Below, piece by piece: positions 31,754 to 63,902 of a DNA stretch of 64,000 nt. Numbering within the stretch: the first letter of the stretch is position 1; every line of letters starts with the position of its first letter. The notes beneath the pieces are model-generated. The model saw nothing but the letters and a program-made list of their open reading frames with translations, did not search any database and was not told the DNA's origin. The translations under genes were made by a program, and so were the position numbers. The DNA comes from a virus, in IMG/VR virus record IMGVR_UViG_3300030329_004888, positions 5,508 through 69,507 of that record. The stretch is one strand, 5' to 3'.

Positions 31754-31754
31754 T

Positions 31755-40083: not shown

Positions 40084-40085
40084 AA

Positions 40086-43351: not shown

Positions 43352-43365
43352 AATAGCCTTTCTTT

Positions 43366-43411: not shown

Positions 43412-43414
43412 TAT

Positions 43415-44215: not shown

Positions 44216-44273
44216 GGTAATTCCTTTCCCCTATGGTCAGGGTGTGAACCCCCATTGGCTTGGGGGCAAGGGT

Positions 44274-45272: not shown

Positions 45273-45302
45273 GTAGTATTACCTCATACGTTATTGTTAT
45301 TA

Positions 45303-46184: not shown

Positions 46185-46198
46185 AATATATCACCTTG

Positions 46199-46618
46199 TT
46201 AAAAAGAAACGTCAAATTTGCCTTGACGGGCACGGTTGAGAGCTTCGCGTTCTGCTTTCTTGAAGTCGTCCTTGTCCATCCAGGCGGCATTCTCATTTAC
46301 TGCGCGCGGAGACATCTCCTCTGCGGAGGGTCGATGACAGCGACTGCCACCGACCGTATCTCCTCCTTCTATAACATCCAGTTCTTTCATTAACTTCTTT
46401 TTATGTTCGTAGCTTTCCACATATTGACCCAGTCCCGGCTCATACCGGCCATACATACTGGAGCGAGTCGTATGCAGATGATTGCCTCCTTTGGTCGCCC
46501 ATGAGGCTTTCTTGCCGCACTCACAGACAATGGTTTCAGGAATGCGTTTGCCCTCTACTGGATAATCCGGATACTTCTTGCCGCAGGTGTCACACCCGTA
46601 ATCCCATAATCGTATCAA
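46199..46618 (-). CDS. FmdB-like zinc-ribbon protein
   Basis: DYGCDTCG...CECG. Confidence 0.7.
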   Translation of the reverse strand: MIRLWDYGCDTCGKKYPDYPVEGKRIPETIVCECGKKASWATKGGNHLHTTRSSMYGRYEPGLGQYVESYEHKKKLMKELDVIEGGDTVGGSRCHRPSAEEMSPRAVNENAAWMDKDDFKKAEREALNRARQGKFDVSF

Positions 46619-48717: not shown

Positions 48718-48718
48718 A

Positions 48719-50143
48719 TCAGTTCAATATGCTTTCTGCATGGGCTGTGCGTAAATCCTTTATGAGATTGGTGCCCAGGAACGGATCCTTGCGAACCACC
48801 GGGGCAGTTGGAGTAGGCTGATACACATGCATGATACCGTAACGGGCCGCATCGGCGGCATGGTCTTCACTCTTGGTGTCAAGATCTTCCGGGTTGGACT
48901 TGGACCGCGGCAATGTCGGCATGGTGCGAAGCAGGTTCGGACACCAGTCGGCAAAGGCATACAGTCGTTTATTGGTTAAAGCATCGTTGATAACGCGCCA
49001 GCCGGTAATGCGATCATTGTTGGCCTTGCTAAGAAACAGTCCCTGCTGTGAAAACACATCCGCAGGCGATTGACTGACCACTTCATGCAGTCGCCGCTTG
49101 ACCCACATACTGGGATCGGCATAGATAATGGACGGACGCCGTCCTCCTGTAAAGGGACAGGAACTGATGATCTTGTCGATTTCATAGGCATGAGTACTGG
49201 CTGCGGCCCCACCCATGTAATACTCGCTGATAAAATAGATCTGACCGTCGTAATCAACGGTTACCAGATAAAAGGCAGTAGGTGACGACTCCCCGTAATC
49301 CATGCACCCGAACAGGGGCCATGATTCAGGGATTTCAAATGAAGGCACGGCCACAGATGAATTCCAGGTGCCGAAGAACGCCCCCAGCGATACCTGCCAG
49401 TCTCCTTCCAGCCAGGCGCGAACCAACTCCGGATCCCCTACTGACTTAAGCCTGTCTATGTACAACGGGTCGTTTTTAAGCAGTATCTTGTTGTCGGACA
49501 ATAAGCTGCGTATCCACATGCGTGGCATGACCGACTGGGTGTCCCGAATGAGTTCCCCCTGGGGACCGGCGTCAATATAATATCGCTTTACTTCATTATG
49601 GCCAACGCCGCCGGGATTCCCCGTCGCCCTGATGCGCTTGCAGGGAATGTCCTCCGCGGAACGCAGGCAGGCCTTGAGTTTGTGATATGGTTTGAGATCA
49701 GGCCAGTTGGTCAACTCGTCAAACGAGATATGAGCATAGGAGTGGCCCTGATAATGATCGGCATCCCCTTCGGTTTCCATATGCCGCAACCGCAGAATGA
49801 CATGGCCGGTAGCATGGGGAATGCGGAATTCATGCACCCCTACCTTGTATTCGGTGCCGGGAAATGCCTTATATAGAACTTTTTTACCTTCTTCGACCAC
49901 TTCATCCAGTTCCGGATAGGTTTTACGGAAAATTATTCCCCTCCATGCCGTGCCATACTCCTGTACGTCCGCAGCAAAGTCGCCGATCAGAAAGGAAGTC
50001 TTCCCCCCACCACGAGCCCCACCAAAAAACAACTCAGGTACAAAAGAAGCACGAATAGCTTTTTCCTGGGGCCCCGGTTGAGGCATCCATTGATCGCGCT
50101 CTGCTCCCGGTGTCTTGGCGGCATTGTCGGATACTCTGGGCAT
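48719..50143 (-). CDS. terL: Terminase large subunit
   Basis: FGGARGGGKT, FDEL, ATGNPGG, MDYG, DHAADAARY. Confidence 0.93.
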   Translation of the reverse strand: MPRVSDNAAKTPGAERDQWMPQPGPQEKAIRASFVPELFFGGARGGGKTSFLIGDFAADVQEYGTAWRGIIFRKTYPELDEVVEEGKKVLYKAFPGTEYKVGVHEFRIPHATGHVILRLRHMETEGDADHYQGHSYAHISFDELTNWPDLKPYHKLKACLRSAEDIPCKRIRATGNPGGVGHNEVKRYYIDAGPQGELIRDTQSVMPRMWIRSLLSDNKILLKNDPLYIDRLKSVGDPELVRAWLEGDWQVSLGAFFGTWNSSVAVPSFEIPESWPLFGCMDYGESSPTAFYLVTVDYDGQIYFISEYYMGGAAASTHAYEIDKIISSCPFTGGRRPSIIYADPSMWVKRRLHEVVSQSPADVFSQQGLFLSKANNDRITGWRVINDALTNKRLYAFADWCPNLLRTMPTLPRSKSNPEDLDTKSEDHAADAARYGIMHVYQPTPTAPVVRKDPFLGTNLIKDLRTAHAESILN

Positions 50144-50146
50144 TGC

Positions 50147-50401
50147 CTACCCTCTGATACCGGCTAACTTCTCGTTAATGTCGTTAAAGGCGGTTTCAGA
50201 AAGCAATCGTGCCGGTATGCCGCCCGCCAGCATGGTAATCTGGGCCGCGTTGAGTAAATCCTGTGCTTCCGCGGCCAGATCCTTCGACTTGCCTTTCTGA
50301 ACTACAGTAGCAATAGCGCCACTGTCATCGACTTCCACTACTTCTGAGGCAGCAGGCTTGCTTGCCGCTTTCTTTTTAGCAGGAGCTTTTTTCTTTGCCA
50401 T
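50147..50401 (-). CDS. Small Lys/Ala-rich protein
   Basis: MAKKKAPAKKKAASK; ggag RBS. Confidence 0.65.
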   Translation of the reverse strand: MAKKKAPAKKKAASKPAASEVVEVDDSGAIATVVQKGKSKDLAAEAQDLLNAAQITMLAGGIPARLLSETAFNDINEKLAGIRG

Positions 50402-50415
50402 TCTAATTTCTCCCT

Positions 50416-50898
50416 TTATCCTGAAACGACCTCTGCCTCAACCGGCACGGCCTGTTCCATCTGTTCGTTCTGCTTGAGCCATTCGTCGTAACTGGCTGCC
50501 CGTGGAGGCACCCTGACACCGACATCGCCGGTATGATGATGCTCATGTTCCACGACCATGCGGTCATCCCCTACTTCCTGACGGATGGCCTGCAATACTT
50601 TTACTTTGAGATTGACGTTGGGCCGCTCGGCATTCTTGAGATCGTTGTACAGAGACTGCAATTCGATGACGCGCTCTTTGCGATGCGCCAGCGGCACGTC
50701 TTTGAAGTTCGCTCTCCATAAGTCCAGCCTGCGGTGGTACTCTTCGATGAAATCCGGATCCCGACGCCAGCGATTGATCCGCTGTCGGGTTACCCCCAGG
50801 ATTTCGGCAATCTCTGCGGATACGTCGCCGCCTCCCCAACGCTCCAGAACCAGCAGGTCCATGGCCTTGGTATGGAGGGGAATGATCTTCACGGACAA
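50416..50898 (-). CDS. terS: Terminase small subunit-like HTH protein
   Basis: AEIAEILGVTRQRINRWRRDPDF; PLAHRKERV; upstream of terL. Confidence 0.65.
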   Translation of the reverse strand: MSVKIIPLHTKAMDLLVLERWGGGDVSAEIAEILGVTRQRINRWRRDPDFIEEYHRRLDLWRANFKDVPLAHRKERVIELQSLYNDLKNAERPNVNLKVKVLQAIRQEVGDDRMVVEHEHHHTGDVGVRVPPRAASYDEWLKQNEQMEQAVPVEAEVVSG

Positions 50899-50912
50899 GT
50901 CCTCCGGGACGC

Positions 50913-51251
50913 TTATACTAAGGCGCTTGCCGGAGAAGGCCTTTCAGGAGCGCCGTTTCCAAGAGGAGAAGCTCCCGTCTGACCCATGTCAGGGCCAAGT
51001 CCTCCAGGGCCCTCGGGGCCACCGCCCTGCTGTTTCAGCAAAAGAAGCATCAACGGCAGCAGTTTCTGTATGTCCATGTCGCCCATCGATCCTCCTGCCT
51101 GCCCGCCGAACAAGGCCTTCAACTGCTGTAATAAACCGGAAACGTCCCCTCCGGGAGGGCCTGCTCCTGGTCCGGGAGCGGAACGAGCCGCATCTGCCTG
51201 TGCTTCCCCTTCAGGGGTGTAAGGAAATTCCTGTCCGTTTACCATTGGCAT
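50913..51251 (-). CDS. Gly/Pro-rich hypothetical protein
   Basis: MPMVNGQEFPYTPEG N-terminus. Confidence 0.6.
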   Translation of the reverse strand: MPMVNGQEFPYTPEGEAQADAARSAPGPGAGPPGGDVSGLLQQLKALFGGQAGGSMGDMDIQKLLPLMLLLLKQQGGGPEGPGGLGPDMGQTGASPLGNGAPERPSPASALV

Positions 51252-51292
51252 AATTCAAATCTCTTTGTTGGATGTGTGGAGCATTGCAGACT

Positions 51293-51934
51293 CTATCTGT
51301 TGAAGCGGTCGAATGTCGGAGCCTGACTGCGGTAATTGACAGGAGTCGGGTCGTCCCTTCTCAAGCCACCGCCGTATCTTCGCAGAACGTCCGCAGGATC
51401 TCCGCGGTTGACAGAGCGTCCTTCCAGCATCTTTCGGGCCAGTGCCCTGGCGTGATCCTGTTCCCCTTCGCGTTGGGCAAATTCATTTGGGCCCCGTCGC
51501 CCAAGTCCAAATCCCTGGGTGCCCCTGTACGTGCGCCTGGGCCGCATCCCACCTCTTCCATACGTCGTTCCACCCGCTCTTTGATAAAGGGTGTCCATGG
51601 GAGTTTCTCTGGCAATGTCCATGGCCCTTTGGGCCCGACCCTGATCAGTGGTGGGCCTTGGTCCGAAATCTCTTACGTGCCTTTGAATTGGTGAAAACCC
51701 CGACCCGGACTCCTGGGCCGTAATATCTGTAATTCCCTTGCGACGCGCCCCCTGCATGGCCAGCGTCTTAAGTAGTTTTGAGATGTTTTCCAGCGATACG
51801 TCCCCTCGTCCCGCCATATCAGCGGCGTTGAGGGCAGCCTGTTGGTAAGGAGCCCCCTCGCCTACGATATTTCGAGTTCCCCATACGCTTGGTTTTATAC
51901 CAGGTATTCCAGTGATTGTTCTTGTTTCGGCCAT
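51293..51934 (-). CDS. Hypothetical protein (first late gene)
   Basis: aaggag RBS. Confidence 0.6.
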   Translation of the reverse strand: MAETRTITGIPGIKPSVWGTRNIVGEGAPYQQAALNAADMAGRGDVSLENISKLLKTLAMQGARRKGITDITAQESGSGFSPIQRHVRDFGPRPTTDQGRAQRAMDIARETPMDTLYQRAGGTTYGRGGMRPRRTYRGTQGFGLGRRGPNEFAQREGEQDHARALARKMLEGRSVNRGDPADVLRRYGGGLRRDDPTPVNYRSQAPTFDRFNR

Positions 51935-51961
51935 TGATTACCACTCCTTGGTTTGCATATA

Positions 51962-52028
51962 TAAAAAGGCCACAAAGACACCTGTCCGAACCATCTCCCG
52001 TCTGACAAGTAACCTCTGTGACCTTTTA
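51962..52028 (-). terminator. Long stem-loop plus U-run in the late leader (possible attenuator)
   Basis: aaaaggtcacagag...ctttgtggccttttt on the minus strand. Confidence 0.45.
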
Positions 52029-52432
52029 ATCTCCCGTTGTCGAAACCATCTCTCGTCTACTGCCTATGCTTCCCCCGAGTATGGGCAGTTCCTCCAGACC
52101 ATAGTTTTCGACCCCTACAGCATACCAAAAGGGAATTTTATTGTCAAGTATTATTATTTGGCTGTAAATACCATGAGGGTGAGAGTGGTGATAATATTTG
52201 GGGTGTATAGCCAGGGCCCGGGTGTTCCCCTGTCGGGTTCACCTTCGGTGAATGCAAAACCATAAAATTGCTCCGGCTCCTAGCTACTGCCCACATGAGC
52301 ACTGCTAATTCAAGCACTACTGCCCTAATGGGCATCATTGAATGCCTATTGGATATGGTTGGTAGTAGGCAAATAATTTGCCCAATGTGTGGGTTATCTT
52401 GCCTAATGTGTGGGTTGTTGTGGTTGCTTGGG

Positions 52433-52691
52433 TAGGCCTTGGGTAGGTCTGAATTGATAGGCCTATAGGTACAACCATAGGCCTATTGGTTAGATGATTA
52501 GATATGTCTAATTAGTAATACTAATACCCCATCTAATCCTATTCCTATAGCGCCCATACCTATAGGCCTATTAGGTACCTATATAGGTACCTATAGGTAC
52601 TGCTGTTCATATAGGCCTATCTAATAGGCCTATACAAAACAAATAATTAAGTACATAAAAATAGGCCTATAGGATAATCCTATAGGCCTAT
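52433..52691. repeat. Array of palindromes ATAGGCCTAT (x7) and TAGGTACCTA (x2)
   Basis: Copies at 52457, 52477, 52562, 52611, 52624, 52661, 52682; the last two form a terminator-like hairpin. Confidence 0.85.
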
Positions 52692-52866
52692 CGGTTAAAG
52701 GTTAGTAGGCGTGTTACCAGTTAAACACCATTTCCAACAAGACGACCACTAGAGCGCCATTGAGCGTATACAAGACAATCCCGCAAATATGCATATTATC
52801 TATTCTCCCGTTGTAATCTCCAAAGGCCATAGGCCACACCAAACGCAAGTATCAACAGATCTAATA

Positions 52867-53610
52867 TCATGACACCATACCATCAACAACAAAACCGGTA
52901 GTGTCTTTTTTTGCCTTGCCTTTGGCTAACAGGCCTACAACCACGCCTTGACGGTCTAACATGCGCGCATCATGAGAGTCGCCATCTATAACGTCATGAC
53001 CACGAAAGAAGGGAGGTAACGTCTTGCGGAATACTACCGCCACATTACGACCCTTCCGTAACCATTCCTTGCAATCTTGCCAATTGTCGCCTTGCGTGGT
53101 CTCGTATCGCGATAGCGTCAAGTGATAGTTATCACGATCCATCTTATACAATCTTGACGCATTTTTCGTGTAGTCGTAAAACTGCACGTTTGGGAATATG
53201 TCAAGTATGGTTTTGCCACAACAGGCAATGTCAAAAGTGATAGATTCCCAAGGCAAATCGCTTGTACCGTTTAGCCGTATAGCTGGCACAAGGTTCTTAC
53301 TTGCTGCCTTCGTTACTACCTTCAAAATATCTTTATAGAGCAATTCTCCAAACTGTTCTTGGTTCTGAAAAAATAATACCGTTCTTGCTATTCGTGCTTG
53401 CTGTATAGCGTTTGTCTTTTCTCCACGTTTTACGATACCAGCACGCCCCGCACTATTCAGACAAGCTTTGCGACAACCAGACGTAGAAAATTGACAGACA
53501 TTATAGCTGGACAAATTTGCTGGCGCTAAGTGTAGGATACCCGTTTCGTATCCAGCTAGGATACTCTTAGCCGTTTTCGGGTTGTGTGTGCTTTCGGTTA
53601 ATAGTTTCAC
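52867..53610 (-). CDS. Gp88-like phage protein
   Basis: LAPA..VC...GCRKACL, RLNGTSD, QFYDYTK, DGDSHD.R, TTGFVV. Confidence 0.8.
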   Translation of the reverse strand: MKLLTESTHNPKTAKSILAGYETGILHLAPANLSSYNVCQFSTSGCRKACLNSAGRAGIVKRGEKTNAIQQARIARTVLFFQNQEQFGELLYKDILKVVTKAASKNLVPAIRLNGTSDLPWESITFDIACCGKTILDIFPNVQFYDYTKNASRLYKMDRDNYHLTLSRYETTQGDNWQDCKEWLRKGRNVAVVFRKTLPPFFRGHDVIDGDSHDARMLDRQGVVVGLLAKGKAKKDTTGFVVDGMVS

Positions 53611-53612
53611 GG

Positions 53613-54053
53613 TTAGTCCATCCTTGATAGGTAGTACGCGTCTTCAATGCCACAGTGTTGCAAGTGTTCAACGCAGGCCTTAGCCCAAACTTCTTTAGGC
53701 TCTAACGACTGCCCAAACATATCAACACTGTAGTAATTCCCTCCACGGTAGCTATCGCGTTTCATAATGCCCGAACGTTTCATCGCTCGCCCAAATGCCG
53801 TATTGCCTTTGACGTGCACGGTAGCGAACCCACAGCAACCTTGCTCAATAGCAAACCTTTGGCCTGTCATTGTATCAATGGCACTAATCGGAGTAGGTAC
53901 AACGTCTTTAGTCGCTATAGATGCGTACTCTATAGCATCATTCCAAATTTCGATATGTCGCATATCACTAATTGGGAATGTCGCTACTCTCTGCCTTGCC
54001 TGTAACCATTGTTCTTCATTCACCATCAGGCGTTCTGGGTCTAATCGTTCCAT
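53613..54053 (-). CDS. Conserved phage protein (CGFA...SRMD type)
   Basis: GCCGFATV, QSLEPKE, YLSRMD; ggag upstream of ATG 54053. Confidence 0.65.
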   Translation of the reverse strand: MERLDPERLMVNEEQWLQARQRVATFPISDMRHIEIWNDAIEYASIATKDVVPTPISAIDTMTGQRFAIEQGCCGFATVHVKGNTAFGRAMKRSGIMKRDSYRGGNYYSVDMFGQSLEPKEVWAKACVEHLQHCGIEDAYYLSRMD

Positions 54054-54113
54054 CTTTCCAACTCTCCAATTTTTGGTGACACCATTGTCACTACCAATAA
54101 AGATACTACAAAC

Positions 54114-54398
54114 ACTGCATATAATACAGTATATATATGAATTTATTTTATGTGGTTTTATACTGCCCATCTTTTCACTGCCCACATAAACCAGTGCACG
54201 AACAAACCAGTGCCCACTTGGGCACCTGGGCCCACGCGAGCCGGTCGTGCGTGTTGTCATGATTTTTTATATGAATTTTGGATGGCGTTGAAATCCGGGG
54301 AAAATTGGAAAAGTTGGATGGTCTGCATAATGGGGGAAAATTGCACCACTCAAATAATCCTTGCATGGACATCCTCCATACTGTATCTTATGCAGTGC
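54114..54398. promoter_or_regulatory. Divergent promoters with inverted ACTGCAT-N4-TACAGTAT sites
   Basis: actgcatataatacagtat (~54114) and atactgtatcttatgcagt (~54379); TTGCAT-17-TATCTT. Confidence 0.6.
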
Positions 54399-54436
54399 TG
54401 ATGAGAATACCCTCATCACGACTTAGGAGAGTCAAC

Positions 54437-54805
54437 ATGCCACACCATGGATGTCAGTCCTCACAGGATAGAATTTTAGGTAGTCTCATAGACTCGATTC
54501 GCGCCGTAAATCTGCAATGCACTATCGACCGCGCACCGACTGACCAACACTCAGCCCGTTACCTGTTACGAATCGAAACAAGAGCAGGAGTCGCAGAAGA
54601 ATTAGAAACGGAGATCGGGCAGATCGAGCTTGAGTTCCATTTCAAGGGATTCACCGTCACCCCAACCCAGAACCTGCTCCGACTACTCCCCCACGACTAC
54701 ACGGAGAGTGGGCGATCTCAGACGCTACTAAGCACTGAGGAGCGCAGTGAATTTCTCGCTGAGGCACAGCGTCTGATGGAAGATCTTAGCGAGGGGGCCT
54801 ACTAA
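54437..54805 (+). CDS. Hypothetical early protein
   Basis: aggag RBS before ATG 54437. Confidence 0.6.
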   Translation: MPHHGCQSSQDRILGSLIDSIRAVNLQCTIDRAPTDQHSARYLLRIETRAGVAEELETEIGQIELEFHFKGFTVTPTQNLLRLLPHDYTESGRSQTLLSTEERSEFLAEAQRLMEDLSEGAY

Positions 54806-54807
54806 CC

Positions 54808-55572
54808 ATGGACAAATTCAGACCAATGCCAATGGGGTGGGCACGTCCTCCATCATCCAAACGAGTCATCTTGTCCTTGTGCGATCATACTGGTATGTGG
54901 GCTTCTCCTTATGTGAGTGACAGAAACGAGACGATCTTCGATTCGGACGGGAATCTCGAAGAGAGAGTCAGTCGCTATCATGTCTATCTCATCGACGTCA
55001 AGATGCCGGTGAAACCAGACTACCTTCCCGATGATCTATGGATCGATGAAAACGACCACGATAATGTCACACGAGTCCAGATGGATGTGAGAGATGTGGA
55101 AATGTGGATGGAAACCCATCTTGAGTGCCGTCCGTGGGGCGTACTGGCGGCTCCACCCTGCACGGATTTCAGTGGATCTGGTGCCCGTTGGTGGGCCGAA
55201 AAGGACGCCGATGGCCGCACTGATTTATCTGTCTCCATAGCCCAGTCCTGCGTCCGCGTTGGCAGGCTCAGTACCAAGTGGTGGGCCTTGGAGAATCCGG
55301 TAGGCAGATTAAATCGGTGGTTGGGCAAACCCAAGATGTATTTTCACCCCTACCATTACGGCGACCCCCATTCCAAAAAGACCGCATTGTGGGGCGACTT
55401 CAACACCGACCTCAAACGGCAATGCGTTGAACCAGTCATGTACACCACCAAGGGCGGCAAAAAGGGCAGTTACAGTTGGGCCAAATACGGTGGTAGGGGC
55501 GAGAAGACCAAGACGATGAGAAGCATTACCCCCAGTGGTTTTGCACGGGCCTTCAAGGCGGTGAACCCATGA
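54808..55572 (+). CDS. Short C5-cytosine methyltransferase-like protein
   Basis: LSLCDHTG, AAPPCTDFS, ENPVGRL, KKTALWG, RSITPSGFARAF. Confidence 0.75.
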   Translation: MDKFRPMPMGWARPPSSKRVILSLCDHTGMWASPYVSDRNETIFDSDGNLEERVSRYHVYLIDVKMPVKPDYLPDDLWIDENDHDNVTRVQMDVRDVEMWMETHLECRPWGVLAAPPCTDFSGSGARWWAEKDADGRTDLSVSIAQSCVRVGRLSTKWWALENPVGRLNRWLGKPKMYFHPYHYGDPHSKKTALWGDFNTDLKRQCVEPVMYTTKGGKKGSYSWAKYGGRGEKTKTMRSITPSGFARAFKAVNP

Positions 55573-55742
55573 AGGACAAAGTCAAGCTGGTCCGGCAATT
55601 GCACGATGACAGCACACCATATGAGATTGAGGCTGGCGATGACGAGATGCACATCGTCTACCGCCACTGGGGCCCAGAAGGACAGCGTATGGAGACCACG
55701 CTCATCGTCACCGACATCATCGAGGACGAGTTAGACCATTAA
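55569..55742 (+). CDS. 57-aa protein with HWGPEGQRMETTL motif
   Basis: ATGA-coupled; homolog of 21311-21601. Confidence 0.75.
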   Translation: MKDKVKLVRQLHDDSTPYEIEAGDDEMHIVYRHWGPEGQRMETTLIVTDIIEDELDH

Positions 55743-55754
55743 CAGGAGATCATT

Positions 55755-55919
55755 ATGCGTAAAACATTTTTGGACATCGACGATTATCCAACCAAAGAAG
55801 ACGCAGAAGCAGAGTGCCCATGGGCCTGTGCCGTTGAGCCAGCAGAGGGCAGTTGGGCTTGCTTTGAGTCAGCCACAGATTGGGAGTTGTGGACAAAAGA
55901 ACTCATCCCCATGGACTAA
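55755..55919 (+). CDS. 54-aa acidic protein
   Basis: aggag RBS; CPWA...FES..DW. Confidence 0.6.
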   Translation: MRKTFLDIDDYPTKEDAEAECPWACAVEPAEGSWACFESATDWELWTKELIPMD

Positions 55920-56016
55920 GCAATAGCCGATAACGCCCCTTCGGGGGCGTCTGGTTGGGACTGATCGCCCAATCACTGACGAGGCAGATCCTCGCACACA
56001 ACAGGAGAGTTGAGAG

Positions 56017-56322
56017 ATGACAGAACAGAACAGCACCCAATCCGTTGCCGTCAACGAGGACGAGGATTTCGAGACCCGGTACTGGCTCAAGCAGATCCAG
56101 CCGCTGATCGGCAAAGGAGTTATCGTTGGGCTGGCCGTAGACGACAGCGGCAAGTACGAAGAATTCGGGATGGGTGAGACCCTCTACGGTATCAAGGTTA
56201 GAACTGGAAAGAAGGGTAGCAAGGCTGAGAATCAATATGTGATCTGGATTTTAAGAGACGAGGAAGGGAATGGGGCTGGGGCAATCGACGTGCAGGGAAT
56301 CAGCGAGGAGGACGAGCAATAA
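56017..56322 (+). CDS. Hypothetical acidic protein
   Basis: aggag RBS. Confidence 0.65.
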   Translation: MTEQNSTQSVAVNEDEDFETRYWLKQIQPLIGKGVIVGLAVDDSGKYEEFGMGETLYGIKVRTGKKGSKAENQYVIWILRDEEGNGAGAIDVQGISEEDEQ

Positions 56323-56651
56323 TGCACGATCCAGTAGAATCAGCACTCAATTACGAGTCAGACAAACAGGCAGCATGGGAGAGGGAATTGATGGAGCGGC
56401 ACGGCGTCGAACGCACCGGTGAGGAATGGCAGGGCCTCACGGGAGCAGAGGTGCGCCAGTGCCGCCAGCATATGCAGTTGACGGCATCGGCGTTGGCAGA
56501 TCAGTGCGGCACCAAGTGGAGGACTGTCTGGAATTGGGAGAAAAACGGCGTGAAAGGCCCTGCCGCCAAGCTCATCGAACTATTGGTGAGGTTGCACGAT
56601 CTGAAGCTTTCTTATACATTGGACGATACCGACTCTCCTAAGACGAGGTAA
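56322..56651 (+). CDS. XRE-type HTH protein
   Basis: LTASALADQCGTKWRTVWNWEKNG. Confidence 0.75.
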   Translation: MHDPVESALNYESDKQAAWERELMERHGVERTGEEWQGLTGAEVRQCRQHMQLTASALADQCGTKWRTVWNWEKNGVKGPAAKLIELLVRLHDLKLSYTLDDTDSPKTR

Positions 56652-56670
56652 TTCTCGTTAGTTGGTATAT

Positions 56671-56709
56671 ACCCCCCATCCTCGCATAACGCAGGGATGG
56701 GGGGTTTTG
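56671..56709 (+). terminator. Rho-independent terminator between convergent genes
   Basis: accccccatcc...ggatggggggttttg. Confidence 0.7.
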
Positions 56710-57228
56710 TTATGCCTCCAGTAATTCCTGCAATGCCCGTTGGTCCTCATCGCGCCAAACCTGTCCCACCCTGTCGGTCGTGTAGGCGATTGCCGCCTGC
56801 GGCCCACGTTTATGCCGTGTTCGTTTCTTGGATTCGGGTAGCTCGTCCAGAGTAGACGACGTCAATAGTTTTTTGATTGCTGTCCATGATACGTTTTTCC
56901 CAATCGACTGGGCATCGAGCCACGCATCCACACCTCCAGACGCATTAGCCTCCAGATAAAACGCACGGGCATAATACAGGTCACGGACAGATCGATCCAG
57001 ATCCATAGCCAGTTTTCCCATCAACGAGCCGGTGCCCCGTTGCCCCAGCCCGGCATACATGGGATGGCTGACGATGGCCTCGCCGATTTCATAGCGGCAA
57101 TGGATGGCCTCCATATGGGCGGCAAATCCCCGTTCGTAGATGATAGCGAGAATGCCCTGAAAAAGCTGTTCATACTCATTGCCGAAATCAGCTGGCTGTA
57201 AATCAGCTTTTGGAATGGCCAGAGACAT
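56710..57228 (-). CDS. DUF1016-N (YhcG N-terminal)-like DNA-binding protein
   Basis: YEIGEAI...LMGKLAMDL..RDLYYARAFY...VSWTAIKKLL. Confidence 0.55.
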   Translation of the reverse strand: MSLAIPKADLQPADFGNEYEQLFQGILAIIYERGFAAHMEAIHCRYEIGEAIVSHPMYAGLGQRGTGSLMGKLAMDLDRSVRDLYYARAFYLEANASGGVDAWLDAQSIGKNVSWTAIKKLLTSSTLDELPESKKRTRHKRGPQAAIAYTTDRVGQVWRDEDQRALQELLEA

Positions 57229-57577
57229 GGGAAAATTCCTTTCGATTGTTTGATATTATTGTGACGGTGAAAACGCGAGGCTCATCCGTCATAAATAAAA
57301 AATTGGTCCGGGAAAAAACAATTCTTTGGCGAGAATTTCCCGGACCGATTCTAATTCGACCTTTTGCGAGGTTGAATTAACTCTTGAATCCTAAGAAAAA
57401 TTCCGGCCAGGCGCCAATTAAATCTGCACCTCCGCCGATCGGCATCTCGACGAAACCGACCCACATCGTGACGATGATATAAAATAAAAAAGGCCGGCAG
57501 ACAAAAGCTGTCCACCGACCCGTGAGGAGTTGGTCACAATGGCAATCGTGAGATGATTGGCCTGTCCGAATATAGGG

Positions 57578-57811
57578 CTATCGATCCGATTGCGCTATCA
57601 AGCACGATGCTGCACAGTTCAGCGCACCGGCCAAGGCAGCCAGGGTCGCCGAAGAAAACGGTTTGCCGTGCAGAATTTTGCTTAAATGAGAAACATCCAA
57701 CTGGGCAACATCAGCCAGTTCAGCCTGGCTCTCAATCCCCAGTTGAGCCATGCGATCCAGCACCACAGCACGATTGATGGTGATTAATATTTTCATTGAC
57801 CCCGTAGTCAT
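57578..57811 (-). CDS. Cro/CI-type HTH repressor
   Basis: SQAELADVAQLDVSHLSKILHG...LAGALNC; counterpart of 20544-20807. Confidence 0.8.
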   Translation of the reverse strand: MTTGSMKILITINRAVVLDRMAQLGIESQAELADVAQLDVSHLSKILHGKPFSSATLAALAGALNCAASCLIAQSDR

Positions 57812-57824
57812 ATATCCCTATTAT
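57796..57824 (+). promoter_or_regulatory. Sigma70-type promoter
   Basis: TTGACC-17-TATTAT, overlapping the repressor start. Confidence 0.65.
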
Positions 57825-57859
57825 ACCCATAAGCACCTCACAACACAAGGAGAGTAGGA

Positions 57860-58507
57860 ATGCCAGACACTATCGAATTACATGACGGGAGCGTTCAGGA
57901 TTTAACGTTTAGGTACGGCAACTGTGCCCGGATGACGAGCCGCAGCGGCACCGGGTTCTATTATCGGTTTGAATTGGAGGAGGGCAGGCTCAACGCCAAT
58001 GCCCACATCGTCAAAGCGATTGCGGAAAATTGGCCCGGACGAGGGGGATCGATGCGAATCGAACGCCACTCTGCTGCCTCGTACACGATCAGCAACGTTA
58101 ATCCCAGTGAAAATGCACAGTACGCCCTCGATATGTGCGAATGGAACAACAACACGCGGAAGTACGATATAATCCCTTTCGACTTGGGGACGGCGGGGAC
58201 GCCAGAGACGGCAACTCCTCAACACAGCCCTCCGTCAACAGCAACGTCGCCGTCCCCCACTCCAGCCACAATCGAAAGCAACACCCAGTGGGACGACATC
58301 ACCGACCTGATGAGGTTCTGCCTGCTGGAGGCCAAAAGAATGTGGGAGAGGACGCAGGTCGAAGCACAGGGGGATCACGCCAAAGCGATTCAGGCGCTGG
58401 CCGTGAGTCTGTACATCGACGCGCGGAAACTGGGCATCACAGTACCGACAGACGACCGCAACGAGTTGATCGCCCAAGAGGTGGACGACGAGGAACTGCC
58501 GTTTTAA
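57860..58507 (+). CDS. SSB-like protein
   Basis: Acidic DDEELPF tail; same slot as 21946-22656. Confidence 0.5.
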   Translation: MPDTIELHDGSVQDLTFRYGNCARMTSRSGTGFYYRFELEEGRLNANAHIVKAIAENWPGRGGSMRIERHSAASYTISNVNPSENAQYALDMCEWNNNTRKYDIIPFDLGTAGTPETATPQHSPPSTATSPSPTPATIESNTQWDDITDLMRFCLLEAKRMWERTQVEAQGDHAKAIQALAVSLYIDARKLGITVPTDDRNELIAQEVDDEELPF

Positions 58508-58740
58508 CGGAATCCTACTACTATCGCGTACCCAGCCAGTCAAGAGACCGTGTCTATCTGATTCTCCAAGAGATTGCAGACGATGCGGTCTCTTGGCACT
58601 GCGGGTGCGAGTTCGCAACATTCCAGAAAAAAGACAGTGCACGGGTGTGCAGACATGTAGATGCTGTCCGTCAGGCCTTCCGACAGGGGGTGGCTGGCGG
58701 CACCGAAAACAATCCCACGTTAGTGGGCATACAGGAGTGA
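58507..58740 (+). CDS. SWIM zinc-finger protein (no canonical start)
   Basis: RVPSQS..Y...WHCGC...CRHV. Confidence 0.55.
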   Translation, partial: TESYYYRVPSQSRDRVYLILQEIADDAVSWHCGCEFATFQKKDSARVCRHVDAVRQAFRQGVAGGTENNPTLVGIQE

Positions 58741-58741
58741 T

Positions 58742-59026
58742 ATGGACACAGACGAGGAATACACCGACGACATCGATAAGGCCCGTGAGGTGGCTGGCAA
58801 GATTGTGGCCACCGCCGATTACTGGATCGCCATTGGATGCACGGTCACAGAAGAAGGAGGCGAACTCCAGTTGGTAGCGGAATTTTCCGAGAATGGAGAC
58901 GCGGAGGCACTGGCACACGCACTGGCTGAACTCCTGCGACGGCGCAGTGATCTGAGGAATTATCTGCTAAAGATGATGGTGTTGTCCGCACGCCCCCTTG
59001 GAGTGGATGACACATGGAAAAATTAG
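58742..59026 (+). CDS. Hypothetical protein
   Basis: aggag RBS. Confidence 0.6.
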   Translation: MDTDEEYTDDIDKAREVAGKIVATADYWIAIGCTVTEEGGELQLVAEFSENGDAEALAHALAELLRRRSDLRNYLLKMMVLSARPLGVDDTWKN

Positions 59027-59388
59027 TTGTGCACGGCATGCTGGTCTCCCTCAACGAGGCCATTGCCAGTGCTAAAAAACACTGGTCTGCCTATGCCAGC
59101 ATCAAGAAGCGATTGACCAATCAGGTATGCACTCTGGCGATGGCGCAGCGGATCGAACCGTTTGACACGCCTGTGGTTATCCGGATGACTCTCTATCCGC
59201 ACAACCGCAAAACCGATCCAGACAACCTGCTGATCAACAGCAAATGGGTGCTGGATGGATTGGTAGCCGCAGGAGTGCTGGCCGATGACGGACCCAAGCA
59301 GATCGCAGGGCTGGAATTCAAATTCGACATGGATCGGGTCAACCCCAGAGTAGTCGTTGAGATCGAGGAGGCCGATGAACCATCCTAA
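59014..59388 (+). CDS. RusA-like resolvase
   Basis: SLNE, DPDNL, KWVLDGLVAAGVLADD, NPRV. Confidence 0.85.
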   Translation: MEKLVVHGMLVSLNEAIASAKKHWSAYASIKKRLTNQVCTLAMAQRIEPFDTPVVIRMTLYPHNRKTDPDNLLINSKWVLDGLVAAGVLADDGPKQIAGLEFKFDMDRVNPRVVVEIEEADEPS

Positions 59389-59675
59389 GCGGATCCTTTC
59401 ACGGTTTTGCGTACGGTGCAAGGTCAACGAGATCATCCACACATCATTCAGGGTGCCGTGGCTGTTCGTGCAAAATTTGCGGACAGGCGACAGCATGCAT
59501 GTAGTGTGGGACGGAGCGAATGTGCCGGTGCGGAAGGAAAGAGATTTTGGCGTATGCGTCAGACGAGTTACAGAGAAGGGGTGGCGGCAACTGGGTCAGA
59601 TCGATGACTGGATGTTTTCGATAACCAGTTTCCCTGCTCTGTGGTATAATAACATAGACAAGGAGGCGAATCAAC

Positions 59676-60005
59676 ATGAAGAAACCAGAGGGATTGACAC
59701 GCCAGGAGAAGGCCAAGGTCAAGAGTCGGAACAAAAACGTGATCGCGAAGTGGGAAGCCAAGTTGGAGGCGCTGGAGCAGCGTGACCCCAGAACGAGGCC
59801 ATTGCATGCGCTGAAGTTTTTTCCTACGCACGGGGCAACTGCGGCCAACATAGCTGGCATCACCGGTCAGCCCGAAGCAGTCGTCAAAAGCACGTTGGAT
59901 CATCTGGCGTCCAAGGGATTTTTGTATCGTAGGGTCAGGCCAGATCCGGAAGCCGTGACTACCCAGCGACGCAAGACACGCATTGTCTATCAATGTCTGG
60001 ATTAG
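59676..60005 (+). CDS. Winged-HTH-like protein
   Basis: aaggagg RBS, upstream TGGTATAAT; TAANIAGITG...LDHLASKG. Confidence 0.6.
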   Translation: MKKPEGLTRQEKAKVKSRNKNVIAKWEAKLEALEQRDPRTRPLHALKFFPTHGATAANIAGITGQPEAVVKSTLDHLASKGFLYRRVRPDPEAVTTQRRKTRIVYQCLD

Positions 60006-60766
60006 ATCTAATTAATGAAGCCATAGACAAGCACAAGTTAAAAACTGTGTTTGCGTTGTTCAGTGGAGGACATGATTCTCTGTGTGCAACGCATGTTGCC
60101 ATGCAGCATCCTGCGGTTACTACGGCAGTCCATATAAATACAGGGATCGGGATAGAAAAGACGCGCCAATTTGTTCGCAATACGTGCAAAAACTTCGATT
60201 GGAAGCTGAATGAGTACCATCCACCAAAGGCGTATAGTGAATTGGTGCAGACATATGGATTTCCTGGCCCTGGACAGCATCAGGCTATGTATATTCAGCT
60301 TAAAGAGCGGTGCTTACGTCAAGTCTTGCGAGAACATAAGACGTATAGACGTGAGGCTATCGGGTTTATTACTGGTGTGCGGTCACAGGAGTCAACTCGA
60401 CGCATGGGTCATGTGAAGCCCATTCAAAAAGACGGAAGTCGCATCTGGATAGCCTGTATACATGATTGGGACAGCAAAGACAAGAATGCATACATGGAGA
60501 AACACAACCTGCCTCGCAATGAAGTTGTAGATTTGCTCCATATGTCAGGGGAATGTTTGTGTGGTGCTTTTGCAAAGCCAGGGGAACGAGAAGAGATTAA
60601 GCTCTGGTTTCCTGAAGTGTATAAAGAAATAGAAGAACTTGAAGAGTCCGTGGCAACAACGGGGAAGCCATGTCGTTGGGGTGTGCAGCCAACAATAAAT
60701 CCGTATCAAACTACCATGAATTTGCCATTGTGCACTTCGTGTATTGCTAAAAATGAGACCCCTTGA
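59993..60766 (+). CDS. PAPS-reductase-family protein
   Basis: FSGGHDS, NTG, TGVRSQES.RR, SGECLCGAFA. Confidence 0.85.
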   Translation: MSGLDLINEAIDKHKLKTVFALFSGGHDSLCATHVAMQHPAVTTAVHINTGIGIEKTRQFVRNTCKNFDWKLNEYHPPKAYSELVQTYGFPGPGQHQAMYIQLKERCLRQVLREHKTYRREAIGFITGVRSQESTRRMGHVKPIQKDGSRIWIACIHDWDSKDKNAYMEKHNLPRNEVVDLLHMSGECLCGAFAKPGEREEIKLWFPEVYKEIEELEESVATTGKPCRWGVQPTINPYQTTMNLPLCTSCIAKNETP

Positions 60767-61706
60767 CGGCCTGACCTACGGCAGTATCTGCTCTGGCATA
60801 GAGGCGGCAAGCGCCGCATGGAAAGAACTGGATTGGCAACCATCATGGTTTGCCGAGGTCGATCCGTTCTGTTGCGAGGTGCTTGCCCATCACTATCCGG
60901 ACATACCCAACCTGATGGACATCACAGCAAAGGAGTTTCTTGATGACGCAACACCAGTTGACGTTCTTATCGGAGGCACTCCCTGTCAAGCCTTCTCCGT
61001 TGCCGGAAGACGACGCGGATTCGATGACGACAGAGGAAATCTCACGCTACGATTTCTGGACGTGGTGGGCCACATACGCCCCCGTTGGGTCGTCTGGGAA
61101 AATGTCCCCGGCGTCCTGTCAATTGACAAAGGACGGACGTTTGGAACCATCCTCGCAAAAATGGCAGGACATGGGTATGGGTGGGCCTACCGAATCCTGG
61201 ACGCTCAGTACTTCGGAGTGCCCCAACGACGCCGTCGAATCTTCCTTGTCGGACATTCTGGAGGAGAGTGGCAGCGTTGCTCCGAAGTACTCGCTGTCGC
61301 CCAAAGCATGTCAGGGCATCCTCCGACGCGCAAAGCGTCGCAAGAAACCGTTGCCGGTGGCACTGGAAAAAGCACTAAAACACACAGCCACTGGGCGGTG
61401 ACCTATGACATGCGCGGCAATGGCAATGGCAAGACGGTGCCCCCTATCATAGGAGATCACGCCAATCGTCCCACCGACTATACGCCTGTAGTTGTAGCAC
61501 GGCCCGGCATGCAAGTACGAAGGCTGACCCCCGTAGAATGCGAACGATTGCAGGGATTCCCAGACAACTACACATTAATCGACAGAAAAGGCAAGCCAGC
61601 AGCCGATAGCCCACGGTATCGGGCAATAGGCAATTCGTTTGCCGTGCCGGTAGTGCGGTGGATCGGCCAGCGCATTGCACACATTGACAAACTGCGAGGA
61701 CAGTAA
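60753..61706 (+). CDS. DNA cytosine-5 methyltransferase
   Basis: CSGIE, GGTPCQAFS, ENVPG, QRRRRIF, RRLTPVECERLQGFP, IGNS. Confidence 0.92.
   Translation: MRPLDGLTYGSICSGIEAASAAWKELDWQPSWFAEVDPFCCEVLAHHYPDIPNLMDITAKEFLDDATPVDVLIGGTPCQAFSVAGRRRGFDDDRGNLTLRFLDVVGHIRPRWVVWENVPGVLSIDKGRTFGTILAKMAGHGYGWAYRILDAQYFGVPQRRRRIFLVGHSGGEWQRCSEVLAVAQSMSGHPPTRKASQETVAGGTGKSTKTHSHWAVTYDMRGNGNGKTVPPIIGDHANRPTDYTPVVVARPGMQVRRLTPVECERLQGFPDNYTLIDRKGKPAADSPRYRAIGNSFAVPVVRWIGQRIAHIDKLRGQ
60940..61401 (+). CDS. Alternative-frame ORF nested in the MTase (M.EcoHK31I beta-like)
   Basis: aaggag upstream; SSLSDILE..PKYSLSPKACQGILRRAKRRKKPLP. Confidence 0.55.
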   Translation: MMTQHQLTFLSEALPVKPSPLPEDDADSMTTEEISRYDFWTWWATYAPVGSSGKMSPASCQLTKDGRLEPSSQKWQDMGMGGPTESWTLSTSECPNDAVESSLSDILEESGSVAPKYSLSPKACQGILRRAKRRKKPLPVALEKALKHTATGR

Positions 61707-62146
61707 TGAAAAAAGAATGGAATGAAGACACATGGGAGCGGAGTCGATGGCCCAACTTTTCCTTTGCCGAAATGAAATGCAGCCACAGTGGACTGTGCTT
61801 CATGGACGAGAGCGCCTTAGACAAATTGCAGGAGATGCGTAACCAGATCGGGCCCCTGTGGGTTACCTCTGCCTACAGAGACAAGACGCATCCAATCGAA
61901 GCACGTAAGACGGATGCGGCGGGGAATCCTCGTCCAGGGGCACATTTCACCGGCAAGGCGTTTGATATCTCCTGCTCTGGAGAAAAGGCCCTACAGGTCG
62001 TTGCCGCGGCATTGTCGGTGCACTTCACCGGACTGGGAATTAAGCAGCACGGGGCCCATGCCAAGCGGTTCATCCATATCGACATGATCAGTGAAGATGA
62101 CAATTTCCACGTTCCACGCCCCACTATCTGGTCGTATGGAAGCTGA
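61706..62146 (+). CDS. Peptidase M15-family endolysin
   Basis: NFSFAEMKC, VTSAYR, GAHFTGKAFDI, FIHID. Confidence 0.85.
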   Translation: MKKEWNEDTWERSRWPNFSFAEMKCSHSGLCFMDESALDKLQEMRNQIGPLWVTSAYRDKTHPIEARKTDAAGNPRPGAHFTGKAFDISCSGEKALQVVAAALSVHFTGLGIKQHGAHAKRFIHIDMISEDDNFHVPRPTIWSYGS

Positions 62147-62807
62147 AAGTCTGTTTGGAGACAGCAACCGGTGCTATCACTGGATGTTGTCTCAGTATCG
62201 GGCGGGGCGCAATATGGAAAAAATAAAGCCCCACTACTACCTGTTCGATGGATCGCATAAGGTCGTTCTGGATCCACGCCGCCAGAAGTGGCTCTGGAAG
62301 CAGGCAGAACGGCGCAATGAACAGACATCGCGCAACCGCAAGTATCAACAGCGCAAACGCGCAGATGGCCTTACTGACGTACAGTGCCACTATCTGGGAA
62401 TCAAGGGGGAGGCAGCGGTTCTACTGGCGTACGGATGGCCCAAGGAACCCCTGAAAACCCTGAAGGCTGGAGGCGTTGGTATTATGGGGGATGCGATTAC
62501 CCCGTCCGGCAAAACCGTACAGATTAAATTGCCCCAAGGACGGAATCGACAATTCGCCCTGCCTACCCATCGCCAGCATCTGGAAACCGATTACGGCATA
62601 CTGGTCTGGCCCGATGAATTCACCACGCCAGTTGACCCGTCTGAGGCCAATGAAACGCTACAGGTGATCGGGTGGTGTTCCAAGGAACAGTTTCAGGCAG
62701 ATTCCGATATACGGACCTTTTCCAACGGCAGCCAGCATTTTCTGCCATGGAAGCTCATGCAAGCCGCCAGAGACTTTCCGTCAGATGATAGCCAAAATAG
62801 CCAATGA
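62136..62807 (+). CDS. Hypothetical, possibly PD-(D/E)XK-like (start uncertain)
   Basis: GIKGEAAV...GD...VQIK...VIGW. Confidence 0.5.
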   Translation: MEAESLFGDSNRCYHWMLSQYRAGRNMEKIKPHYYLFDGSHKVVLDPRRQKWLWKQAERRNEQTSRNRKYQQRKRADGLTDVQCHYLGIKGEAAVLLAYGWPKEPLKTLKAGGVGIMGDAITPSGKTVQIKLPQGRNRQFALPTHRQHLETDYGILVWPDEFTTPVDPSEANETLQVIGWCSKEQFQADSDIRTFSNGSQHFLPWKLMQAARDFPSDDSQNSQ

Positions 62808-62845
62808 GAATTTTCCCGGTAATTTTGGGTGAGGCCTATTTGGTT

Positions 62846-63010
62846 TTAGCTGCTGCCACCTTTTGAATCTACGTACGCCTGACCCAGAAGATACACGGCC
62901 AGCACTATTGCCTGAGCGATTGGCTCTCCCTCGAGCAAGGCAAACCCCCCACCGGCCACCGCCACCTTCTTGCTGACCACACTCTTGATACGTTCTGTAA
63001 GAAAATCCAT
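62846..63010 (-). CDS. Putative holin (54 aa; missing from ORF track)
   Basis: MDFLTERIKSVVSKK...YLLGQAYVD; aaggag RBS; homolog of 27496-27687. Confidence 0.65.
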   Translation of the reverse strand: MDFLTERIKSVVSKKVAVAGGGFALLEGEPIAQAIVLAVYLLGQAYVDSKGGSS

Positions 63011-63036
63011 TTGTTTCTCCTTATTATGCTATCAGG

Positions 63037-63321
63037 TTAAGCGTCGGACGCTCCTTGCTCTTCCTCCGCAGTCTGCACAGACAACATGGGATCTCCGTTG
63101 ACACCGGCACCAATTGGCTTCGGCAATAACACATCCCTGTAGACCATCAGTTGGCCGGTCAGACGCTGACAAAGAGCGTCATTGTTCACCAGGTGTTGAC
63201 GCCGCTGTATAATCTGTGACTCCAACTGCTCAACGATCCTCTGTACGTCTTCTGTGGCTGGCATTTCTGTCATGTCGATCCTTTCTCTTTTTTCTACTGG
63301 GAAGTCTTCCCACATGAACAT
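63037..63321 (-). CDS. Coiled-coil hypothetical protein
   Basis: Late-strand ORF; start possibly 63273. Confidence 0.55.
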   Translation of the reverse strand: MFMWEDFPVEKRERIDMTEMPATEDVQRIVEQLESQIIQRRQHLVNNDALCQRLTGQLMVYRDVLLPKPIGAGVNGDPMLSVQTAEEEQGASDA

Positions 63322-63476
63322 CTCTTCTCTGTACTCGTTCCCATGTTTTGCGCTTGTGTTTTCGCTGCCTGAACTTCCTGTACCAAGTCAAACAGCGCGT
63401 CCTTAACGACAGCAGGTACAGCCTCTGTTGTAGTGCATAGCTTTAACGCCTCATTTAATTTTTCAGTGTATATCAT
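63294..63476 (-). CDS. Hypothetical protein
   Basis: ATGA-coupled to 63473-63901. Confidence 0.5.
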   Translation of the reverse strand: MIYTEKLNEALKLCTTTEAVPAVVKDALFDLVQEVQAAKTQAQNMGTSTEKRCSCGKTSQ

Positions 63477-63901
63477 TTTCCACCTTCATAGATCCTGCGT
63501 AATATAACAATAGCCATGGTTATACCCCACATTATCGATCCGCTAACTGCTTCGTGTTGCCAAAAACTTTGCCACTGACTGCCTCCGGGCCAGCCGTGAC
63601 TTATCTCCCAGATCTGATACAGTATTACCATGAGAGTGGCCGCTGTAGTGGAAGCTATTGTTGTCTGTTTGCTTTCCTTCTTGGCCTGCTCCTCACGAGT
63701 AAGAAGCTCTTCAACTTCTCTCTGTGTAGCCTTAACCTCTTTACGCTTTACTTGTAATTCTTTTCGATCTGAACTACCAACACTAAACGCTAATTTACGC
63801 TCTTGCTGGCACTCCTTTAACGCCCTCAAGCATCTGACATACTCCTCCTTAACCTCGCCAAAAGAAGAGCATGAATCCGGGTTCTTAAACCTCCGTGCCA
63901 T
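63473..63901 (-). CDS. Coiled-coil plus two-TM membrane protein
   Basis: Homolog of 27797-28222. Confidence 0.7.
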   Translation of the reverse strand: MARRFKNPDSCSSFGEVKEEYVRCLRALKECQQERKLAFSVGSSDRKELQVKRKEVKATQREVEELLTREEQAKKESKQTTIASTTAATLMVILYQIWEISHGWPGGSQWQSFWQHEAVSGSIMWGITMAIVILRRIYEGGK

Positions 63902-63902
63902 A

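Follow-up and report, generated by a model that had tools for sequence, protein, structure and literature searches.

A marine phage of 35.7 kb without recognisable replication enzymes, joined to a second phage by assembly in one virus record

How does a phage with its own virion genes copy its DNA when no replication enzyme can be recognised among its genes? The question is raised by phage B, which occupies part of the IMG/VR virus record IMGVR_UViG_3300030329_004888. The record has 69,507 bases and is classed as linear; the window analysed here is the whole 64,000-nucleotide stretch from base 5508 to base 69507, and positions below are those of the window unless the record is named. The listing of open reading frames (ORFs) and profile scans divide it into two phage-like gene sets, phage A from the record start to ~28,200 and phage B over ~28,200-64,000. 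In both the virion operon runs leftward and the early operon rightward, with identical virion gene order and virion proteins that are 31-46% identical (blastp). A preliminary description of the window had held that B is apparently complete but has no recognisable replicase, helicase, integrase, recombinase or ParA, and had proposed a 'reverse satellite' that makes its own virion and borrows replication from the host or from a partner such as A, which could give the fusion of the two phages a purpose. Our analysis suggests, with somewhat better than even confidence, that B is an autonomous and complete podovirus-like marine phage without polymerase, primase or helicase, and that it is copied by the host replisome. 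The fusion arose in assembly, by a path that crosses a short segment common to A and B.

The completeness of B follows from its ends. The bases 28224-28321 recur at 63903-64000, and contigs from two sequencing runs (X2 and X3) join the right end of B to 28218 onward, so that B is a closed unit of 35,679 bp. B carries the virion and packaging genes terS, terL, a portal homologue, a major head protein, an adaptor and a tail fibre. Self-comparison by blastn found two overlaps within the record, one between record bases 1-215 and window 28917-29131, the other between 63894-64000, which is the record end, and 28215-28321. In a base-by-base map the left copy of the shared segment has three mismatches in 192 nt with divergence beyond, and the right copy has two mismatches in its last 105 nt and is identical from 63903 onward. 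It follows that the record contains A (34,423 bp) and, behind it, B (35,679 bp), the two connected via one 885-bp segment that belongs to both.

Read depth shows the same separation. We mapped the Logan contigs of four marine runs (X1-X4), chosen for holding B, to window 20000-39999; the record may derive from two of them. The A-specific depths in the four runs were 134-139, 126, 12.5 and 16.8, and the B-specific depths about 62, 76, 6 and 4. The contig of the shared piece (825 and 866 nt) had depths of 204.6 in X1 and 201.6 in X2, which equals the A and B depths added together. Contig breaks lie at 28253 and at 29060-29089; the loose ends before 28218 (X2, X3) correspond to 63867-63896 at the right end of B, while those behind 29109 (all four runs) correspond to record bases 194-223 at the left end of A. 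From the differing depths, the summed shared contig and the separate closures we conclude that A and B are two genomes of different abundance, each closed or terminally redundant, and that the shared segment is the node through which the assembly passes from A to B. Since the fusion is an artefact of assembly, there is no purpose to be sought for it, and that part of the preliminary description is not supported. The 69.5-kb entry contains two phages, for each of which size, completeness and gene content have to be assessed separately.

The absence of recognisable replication genes in B was confirmed with three profile databases. Pfam and PHROGs scans of 40 ORFs in 50147-63901 found no polymerase, primase, helicase, initiator, integrase, recombinase or ParA. 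No such family was found by Pfam in 17 B ORFs of 28307-50401, or in B by PHROGs among 55 ORFs of 2-50143, a range in which the part of A does have Prim-Pol and D5 genes. NCBIfam gave no replication, integration or partition family for 26 ORFs. Relaxed scans were equally empty, with Pfam at E-values up to 5 (11 ORFs) and PHROGs at E-values up to 1 (15 ORFs). The module of Prim-Pol (PF09250) and D5_N (PF08706) with its P-loop helicase is absent from all B ORFs, and neither a tyrosine or serine recombinase nor ParA/ParB was found in B by Pfam, PHROGs or NCBIfam. The initiation families of the lambdoid O/P or DnaA/DnaC type had no match in the same three databases, from whose profiles remote members can escape. 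Cryptic initiators, for which the early ORFs of B were searched with profiles, did not turn up.

A search for Walker-A motifs in open frames of at least 60 amino acids in all six frames of B gave six places. One is terL and two are large tail-module proteins; the others are an 81-aa frame at 36936, a frame on the opposite strand of 56710-57228, and the ORF at 62091-62807. None of the early ORFs looks like a P-loop helicase or loader by this search; the D...QIK context of the match in 62091-62807 appears more nuclease-like than P-loop.

The contrast with A is sharpest at one slot, as the preliminary description had noticed. A and its relative L038 share with B the virion gene order, a tip-bearing protein followed by RusA, a methyltransferase family and the tail-fibre tip. 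Between the tip-bearing protein and RusA, A and L038 have Prim-Pol and a D5 helicase, while B, G001 and L009 (two relatives of B introduced below) have nothing or ORFs of 66-94 aa. In B the slot holds only a frame with a SWIM motif and a 94-aa ORF (Table 1).

The relatives of B that carry its SSB-like gene have no replication gene in this slot either. A scan of viral contigs with P0001 as a single protein, P0001 being the predicted single-stranded DNA-binding (SSB)-like protein of B, found no relative, and a scan with a 15-row alignment of SSB-like proteins found G001 and L009 only. G001, a record of its own, has 39,532 bp and an exact terminal repeat of 103 bp; its terL and that of B are 70% identical. 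Its early region reads DUF1016_N-like protein (- strand), helix-turn-helix (HTH) protein (- strand), two small ORFs, SSB-like protein, RusA immediately behind it, and then M15 peptidase; none of its 29 early-region ORFs matches a replicase or integrase. L009 is a 7-kb fragment with the same cassette and one 66-aa ORF in the slot. The slot is thus empty or filled with tiny ORFs in all three genomes with this SSB-like gene, and the replicase-free cassette of DUF1016_N-like, HTH, tip-bearing SSB-like and RusA genes has been kept over ~30% divergence of terL. The homologues of the DUF1016_N-like protein are 29.5% (G001) and 34% (L009) identical to that of B, and the one in G001 matches PF17761 with an E-value of 0.005.

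The wider terL clade is less uniform. We examined 15 loci over 7.6-10 kb upstream of terL with 114 ORFs of at least 140 aa; these are partial early regions with the small ORFs left out. One of the 15 has Prim-Pol/D5 (L038, which also carries the tip-bearing protein of A) and another a UvrD-like helicase (L083). Tyrosine integrases (PF00589) are found in L026, L033 and L056, whose terL proteins are 61%, 56% and 41% identical to that of B; ERF is found in L044 and L087, and AAA_24 in L056. An AAA_5/AAA ATPase adjoining a DUF7192 protein upstream of terL is a recurring pair (4/15: L037, L061, L065 and L072). These varied modules indicate that replication modules are mosaic in the clade. For the most part the clade is temperate, but no integrase is seen in B or G001. 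Among the ORFs of 82 viral and 80 genome terL loci, the SSB-like family profile detected no member.

In its predicted structure the SSB-like protein P0001 has a beta-rich N domain with one helix (residues 1-110), a P/S/T linker (111-140), three helices (144-207) and an acidic DDEELPF tip. The model was built on a 42-sequence alignment and has a pLDDT of 85.5 overall, ~95 for residues 1-110 and 52-58 for residues 111-140; an earlier model from six sequences, with a pLDDT of 41, was unusable. A word-indexed search gave five homologues and an exhaustive profile search 69 cluster representatives at E <= 0.001, 46 of them at E <= 1e-10. The alignment comprises the near-full-length members from the profile search and four of the five word-search homologues, with very long low-complexity hits and short fragments left out. 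A C-terminal tip of the form acidic-[LIMFV]PF is found in 33 of the 42 members, and P0001 itself has both the linker (of low pLDDT) and the acidic-[IL]PF tip by which an SSB may be recognised. In bacterial SSB the acidic LPF tip is the handle for binding partner proteins, and we take the DDEELPF-type tip of this family to be its equivalent. The conserved tip is the strongest feature of P0001 in this respect.

The fold points weakly in the same direction. Foldseek gave nothing at E <= 0.001 for P0001; its top rows are OB-fold binders with E-values of 0.09-0.25 (a ligase OB domain, Rim1, RPA, Bartonella SSB, LEF-3 and PrgE). VIA, which is independent of Foldseek, compared the N domain with RuvBL2 OB, Rim1, PRD1 SSB P12, RPA DBD-A and Bartonella SSB at Z-scores of 3.9-5.0. 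A sequence profile search of the PDB had a best E-value of 1.3 to an unrelated protein, the protein atlas returned unnamed viral clusters only, and the sole Pfam match of the 42 members at E <= 0.01 was a weak one to Vmethyltransf_C (E-value 0.0069). Divergent phage SSBs with acidic tails are described in passages of PMC4889955, and P0001 shares with bacterial SSB and with such phage proteins (PRD1 P12; DUF669/N4-like) the beta-rich N domain, the disordered linker and the acidic LPF tip. Unlike known SSBs, its family has no sequence match to any SSB family and has an extra conserved helical domain between linker and tip. P0001 is thus predicted to be a divergent SSB, which is probable but unproven. 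With 46 representatives and no name in Pfam, the family could merit an entry of its own.

A second feature of interest lies in the AT-rich non-coding gap between the GP88 gene and the leftward operon, where seven exact copies of the 10-nt palindrome ATAGGCCTAT stand within 235 nt. No exact copy was found elsewhere in the 64 kb, so the palindrome is absent from A. Allowing at most one mismatch, we counted 8 sites against 1.36 expected, and none of 100 shuffles reached 8. The GC content is 0.443 over 52001-54000. Clustered repeats in AT-rich non-coding DNA are what is expected of iteron-type origins, and the array has this form. A related motif is clustered in G001, where all six ATAGGCC sites found in 19.5 kb lie in 177 nt of a gap comparable to that of B. 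The array of B may be an origin, an operator array of the late operon or a packaging signal; a promoter-like site on the - strand stands nearby.

We propose that the host replisome would copy the DNA of B, with phage-supplied parts being accessory. B would supply the SSB-like adaptor, RusA, methyltransferases and small HTH proteins. The acidic LPF tip may copy the tip of bacterial SSB that recruits host replication and repair proteins, and the ATAGGCCTAT cluster would be the best candidate site for the start of replication or its control. One small DNA-binding protein, not recognised by profiles as an initiator, would probably bind the ATAGGCCTAT sites, as iterated palindromes imply a dedicated DNA-binding protein. 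The preliminary idea of borrowed replication is partly supported: its host half remains, by elimination, the best reading, and nothing specific speaks for its partner half.

Such a phage has precedents. In passages of Kazlauskas et al. 2016 (PMC4889955), replicative helicases are reported for 75% of representative dsDNA virus genomes and are missing from the other 25%, which usually carry integrases, recombination proteins or initiators. Passages of a preprint (bioRxiv 10.1101/2019.12.14.876532) describe the cultured pelagiphage HTVC106P as having no identified replication genes. Like HTVC106P and the helicase-less dsDNA viruses, B has virion, packaging and lysis genes in less than 40 kb and no polymerase, primase or helicase, and the authors of those works, in the same passages, also infer that such phages rely on the host or on a novel module. 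B differs from the usual helicase-less viruses in having no recognisable integrase, recombinase or initiator, and its likeness to HTVC106P is one of gene content. The lambdoid early region (cI / cro-O-P / nin-RusA) resembles that of B in having a divergent HTH gene and promoter, a rightward operon with a distal RusA, and repeated protein-binding sites in an AT-rich stretch, the sites of B being putative. Unlike lambdoids, B has no match to Phage_rep_O, DnaB/DnaC-like or P-like proteins, and its repeats are irregularly spaced 10-nt palindromes that stand 5 kb from the switch and outside any initiator gene. B is a further case of a known kind, the small phage without recognisable replication enzymes; the new items are modest, namely the unnamed tip-bearing SSB-like family and the conserved palindrome cluster. 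Together with its relatives, B defines a small marine phage lineage with a conserved cassette and no recognisable replication enzyme. Should the SSB-like protein indeed use this tip to bring the host replisome to phage DNA, its lineage would offer a compact model of replication with almost no replication genes.

Several points weigh against host-driven replication. Host dependence was reached by elimination. Since viruses that lack a helicase usually carry an integrase, a recombinase or an initiator, B is likely to have a hidden one, and the description of its proteins as accessory only may be incomplete. Folding of the early ORFs covered P0001 only. None of the 42 members of its family matches a curated SSB family (Pfam, E <= 0.01), and P0001 has no match in PHROGs or NCBIfam; its fold scores are under the noise bars of the tools (Foldseek best E-value 0.09; VIA Z-score 3.9-5.0 against ~8). 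The ATAGGCCTAT repeats equally fit operators or a packaging signal. DnaA boxes with at most one mismatch number 10 against 12 expected and form no cluster. In G001 the count of six ATAGGCC sites was reached by 4 of 200 shuffles, while their clustering was not reached. Finally, A was present in each of the four mapped runs and was deeper each time.

The strongest competitor of the host-replisome reading is that B encodes an initiator or replicative enzyme of its own, from a family that current profiles do not see, so that its absence is a failure of detection. We regard this as unlikely, though it deserves real weight. At least six early ORFs have no match at any threshold, the unassigned ones being 53613-54260, 54278-54805, 56017-56322, 56710-57228, 58742-59026 and 62091-62807. 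The DUF1016_N-like protein is kept with the cassette in B, G001 and L009, the palindromes would need a binding protein, and an initiator is among the genes that helicase-less viruses usually carry (passages of PMC4889955). The candidates, however, are all shorter than 240 aa and none has a convincing P-loop, so that neither a helicase nor an AAA+ loader is likely among them. Only the DUF1016_N-like protein has a counterpart in G001 (blastp, 1e-4), and the 238-aa ORF has only two homologues.

Much less credit can be given to the idea that B is a replication parasite, the 'reverse satellite' that makes its own virion and needs the Prim-Pol/D5 of a co-infecting A-type phage. Phage satellites such as P4, PICIs and PLE depend on another element for an essential function, which is the idea behind the name. 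Such satellites lack virion genes but retain replication genes, whereas B shows the reverse, with capsid, tail and packaging genes of its own. What speaks for the parasite is contact between the two phages. The shared segment comprises the last ~179 codons of the tail fibre with a C1q-like tip (PF00386, E-value 8e-5, just short of Pfam's cut-off), an 81-aa ORF (28307-28552, - strand) and a spacer. Its ~99% identity, against 31-46% at the protein level elsewhere, points to a receptor-binding module that was recently swapped between co-infecting phages; A and B would then share a host in which they meet.

Co-occurrence gives this idea some further ground. In the four runs the depth of A was 1.6 to ~4 times that of B, and B abundant without an A-like partner was not seen in them. 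Three of the six A-like terL loci (64-74% identical to the terL of A) share a sample prefix with a B-like locus, including that of G001. The preliminary description had asked whether A and B co-occur; they do, but in runs chosen for B and among the best 80 of more than 579 loci, and two phages of one host would co-occur in any case. A and B have no shared non-coding sequence outside the tail-fibre module, and with the palindrome absent from A nothing suggests that an initiator of A acts on B. B has its own SSB-like, RusA and regulatory genes, the cassette persists across the terL divergence of G001 and L009, and the fusion that motivated the idea is artefactual. With no common cis element, a cassette kept with its own regulators and the fusion gone, helper dependence of B is very improbable, and we hold it just as doubtful that B-type phages (B, G001 and L009) dropped every replication enzyme and multiply only beside an A-type donor of Prim-Pol/D5.

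Least credible of all is a real A-B junction, a co-integrate molecule made by recombination at the shared segment: the junction is present in the record, homologous recombination over 885 bp is possible under co-infection and a single X4 contig spans A into most of the segment (20040-29035), but the unequal depths in all four runs with their sum in the shared contig, the contig breaks on both sides and the loose ends that lead from the shared piece to the left end of A (four runs) and the right end of B (X2, X3) speak against it as more than a minor form, and ~70 kb would presumably not fit a capsid sized for ~35 kb.

The remaining features are given in Table 1. The early genes listed in the preliminary description (Gp88-like, methyltransferases, HTH proteins, RusA, PAPS reductase and M15) are borne out by Pfam and PHROGs matches; its SSB-like and SWIM assignments go back to motifs and, for the former, the weak OB-like fold. 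Scans of the window with Rfam and for tRNAs found none. A literature search for PF17338 found no publication.

Table 1. Coordinates of the features discussed (window positions)
Feature	Position	Strand	Evidence and remarks
Phage B, closed unit	28224..63902		35,679 bp; terminal repeat and X2, X3 contigs
Segment shared by A and B	28224..29108		885 bp, ~99% identity; self-comparison, summed contig depth
Promoter-like site	52147-52119	-	near the palindromes
Seven exact copies of ATAGGCCTAT	52457..52691		235 nt, AT-rich non-coding gap between GP88 and leftward operon
GP88-family protein	52867..53610	-	PF17338 E 2e-40; phrog_1617 E 9e-62
ORF without family match	53613..54260	-	Pfam, PHROGs, NCBIfam empty; start uncertain, ATG 54053 has better upstream GGAG
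ORF without family match	54278..54805	+	Pfam, PHROGs, NCBIfam empty; start uncertain
DNA methyltransferase	54808..55572	+	phrog_757 E 3.5e-43; 34.5% identity to 18604-19425 of A (blastp)
Small HTH protein	56322..56651	+	phrog_7950 E 5.9e-8; weak Pfam HTH matches
DUF1016_N-like helical protein	56710..57228	-	atlas structure rows TM 0.54-0.57, under the tool's naming bar
Terminator-like hairpin	57521-57491		listed with the Cro/CI-type HTH gene
Cro/CI-type HTH protein	57578..57811	-	PF01381 E 2e-5, PF13443; divergent from rightward operon
Sigma-70-like promoter match	57796..57824	+	TTGACC-17-TATTAT, 10/12; consensus match only; ahead of SSB-like gene
SSB-like protein P0001, 215 aa	57860..58507	+	DDEELPF tip and weak OB-like fold
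Frame with SWIM-type CxC...CxH	58510..58740 (within frame 58135-58740)	+	motif read by eye in 3' part
Acidic 94-aa ORF	58742..59026	+	Pfam, PHROGs, NCBIfam empty
RusA-like Holliday-junction resolvase	59014..59388	+	PF05866 E 2.7e-5; phrog_1682 E 3.7e-24
Small protein, possibly winged-helix	59676..60005	+	weak: TrmB E 0.025, MarR_2 E 0.12, phrog_1123 E 4.9e-4
PAPS-reductase-like protein	59993..60766	+	PF01507 E 1.5e-13; phrog_424; 63% identity to that of G001
C5 cytosine DNA methyltransferase	60744..61706	+	PF00145 E 8e-56
M15 peptidase, endolysin-like	61706..62146	+	PF08291 E 1.8e-9; phrog_894
238-aa ORF	62091..62807	+	two unnamed homologues; DUF6998 E 0.015; AITPSGKT (Walker-A regex)
Phage A tip-bearing protein, 236 aa	21946..22656	+	ends GDLPF; position matches the SSB-like gene of B
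Phage A Prim-Pol ORF	22685..23344	+	PF09250 E 2.7e-35
Phage A D5_N/DUF5906 helicase ORF	23172..25178	+	Pfam, PHROGs

The frame with the SWIM motif is an unusual one. No ATG, GTG or TTG stands between the stop of the SSB-like gene (58507) and 58645, the Pfam scan of the frame was empty, and its stop abuts the ATG of the next gene. The frame could be a relic, or its translation could begin at an unusual codon (CTG/ATT near 58558, behind AAGAG). By reading, we saw no slippery site that would suggest a programmed frameshift from the SSB-like gene into this frame.

In phage A the Prim-Pol and D5 ORFs overlap by 173 nt, the second being in the +1 frame. L038 has the same two-ORF layout (1326-3732, - strand), where the overlap is 95 nt and the frames stand in the same relation, its two proteins being 51% and 46% identical to those of A, and no indel was found in the overlap of A in the four runs. 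The overlap could reflect two genes or a conserved frameshift. The GDLPF protein of A has no detectable relationship to the SSB-like protein of B (profile of A2, E-value 6.1). Adjoining terS in A is a stretch of ~1.3 kb (16410-17700) without a convincing gene. A 48-nt hairpin with a T/A run occurs there twice (17123-17170 and 17493-17540), together with a number of short direct repeats (GGGCAGAATGGGGGC, GAGGGCCAAATG). This stretch may be the counterpart in A of the repeat region of B.

No host was predicted from terL: the best match in contigs of one genome per species is 48% (a metagenome-assembled genome of Latescibacterota) and the rest are at most 40%, mostly from Proteobacteria prophages. 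More distant relatives (L090-L169, genome contigs) are found on the chromosomes of Proteobacteria, among them Polynucleobacter and Caulobacteraceae. The early region of B (52000-61900) was found at least in part in 20 marine, seawater or plankton runs from nine studies of 2014-2025; four of the runs hold half or more of its words and the others (X5-X20) 0.20-0.47 of them. B or its close kin thus appear to be widespread in the sea.

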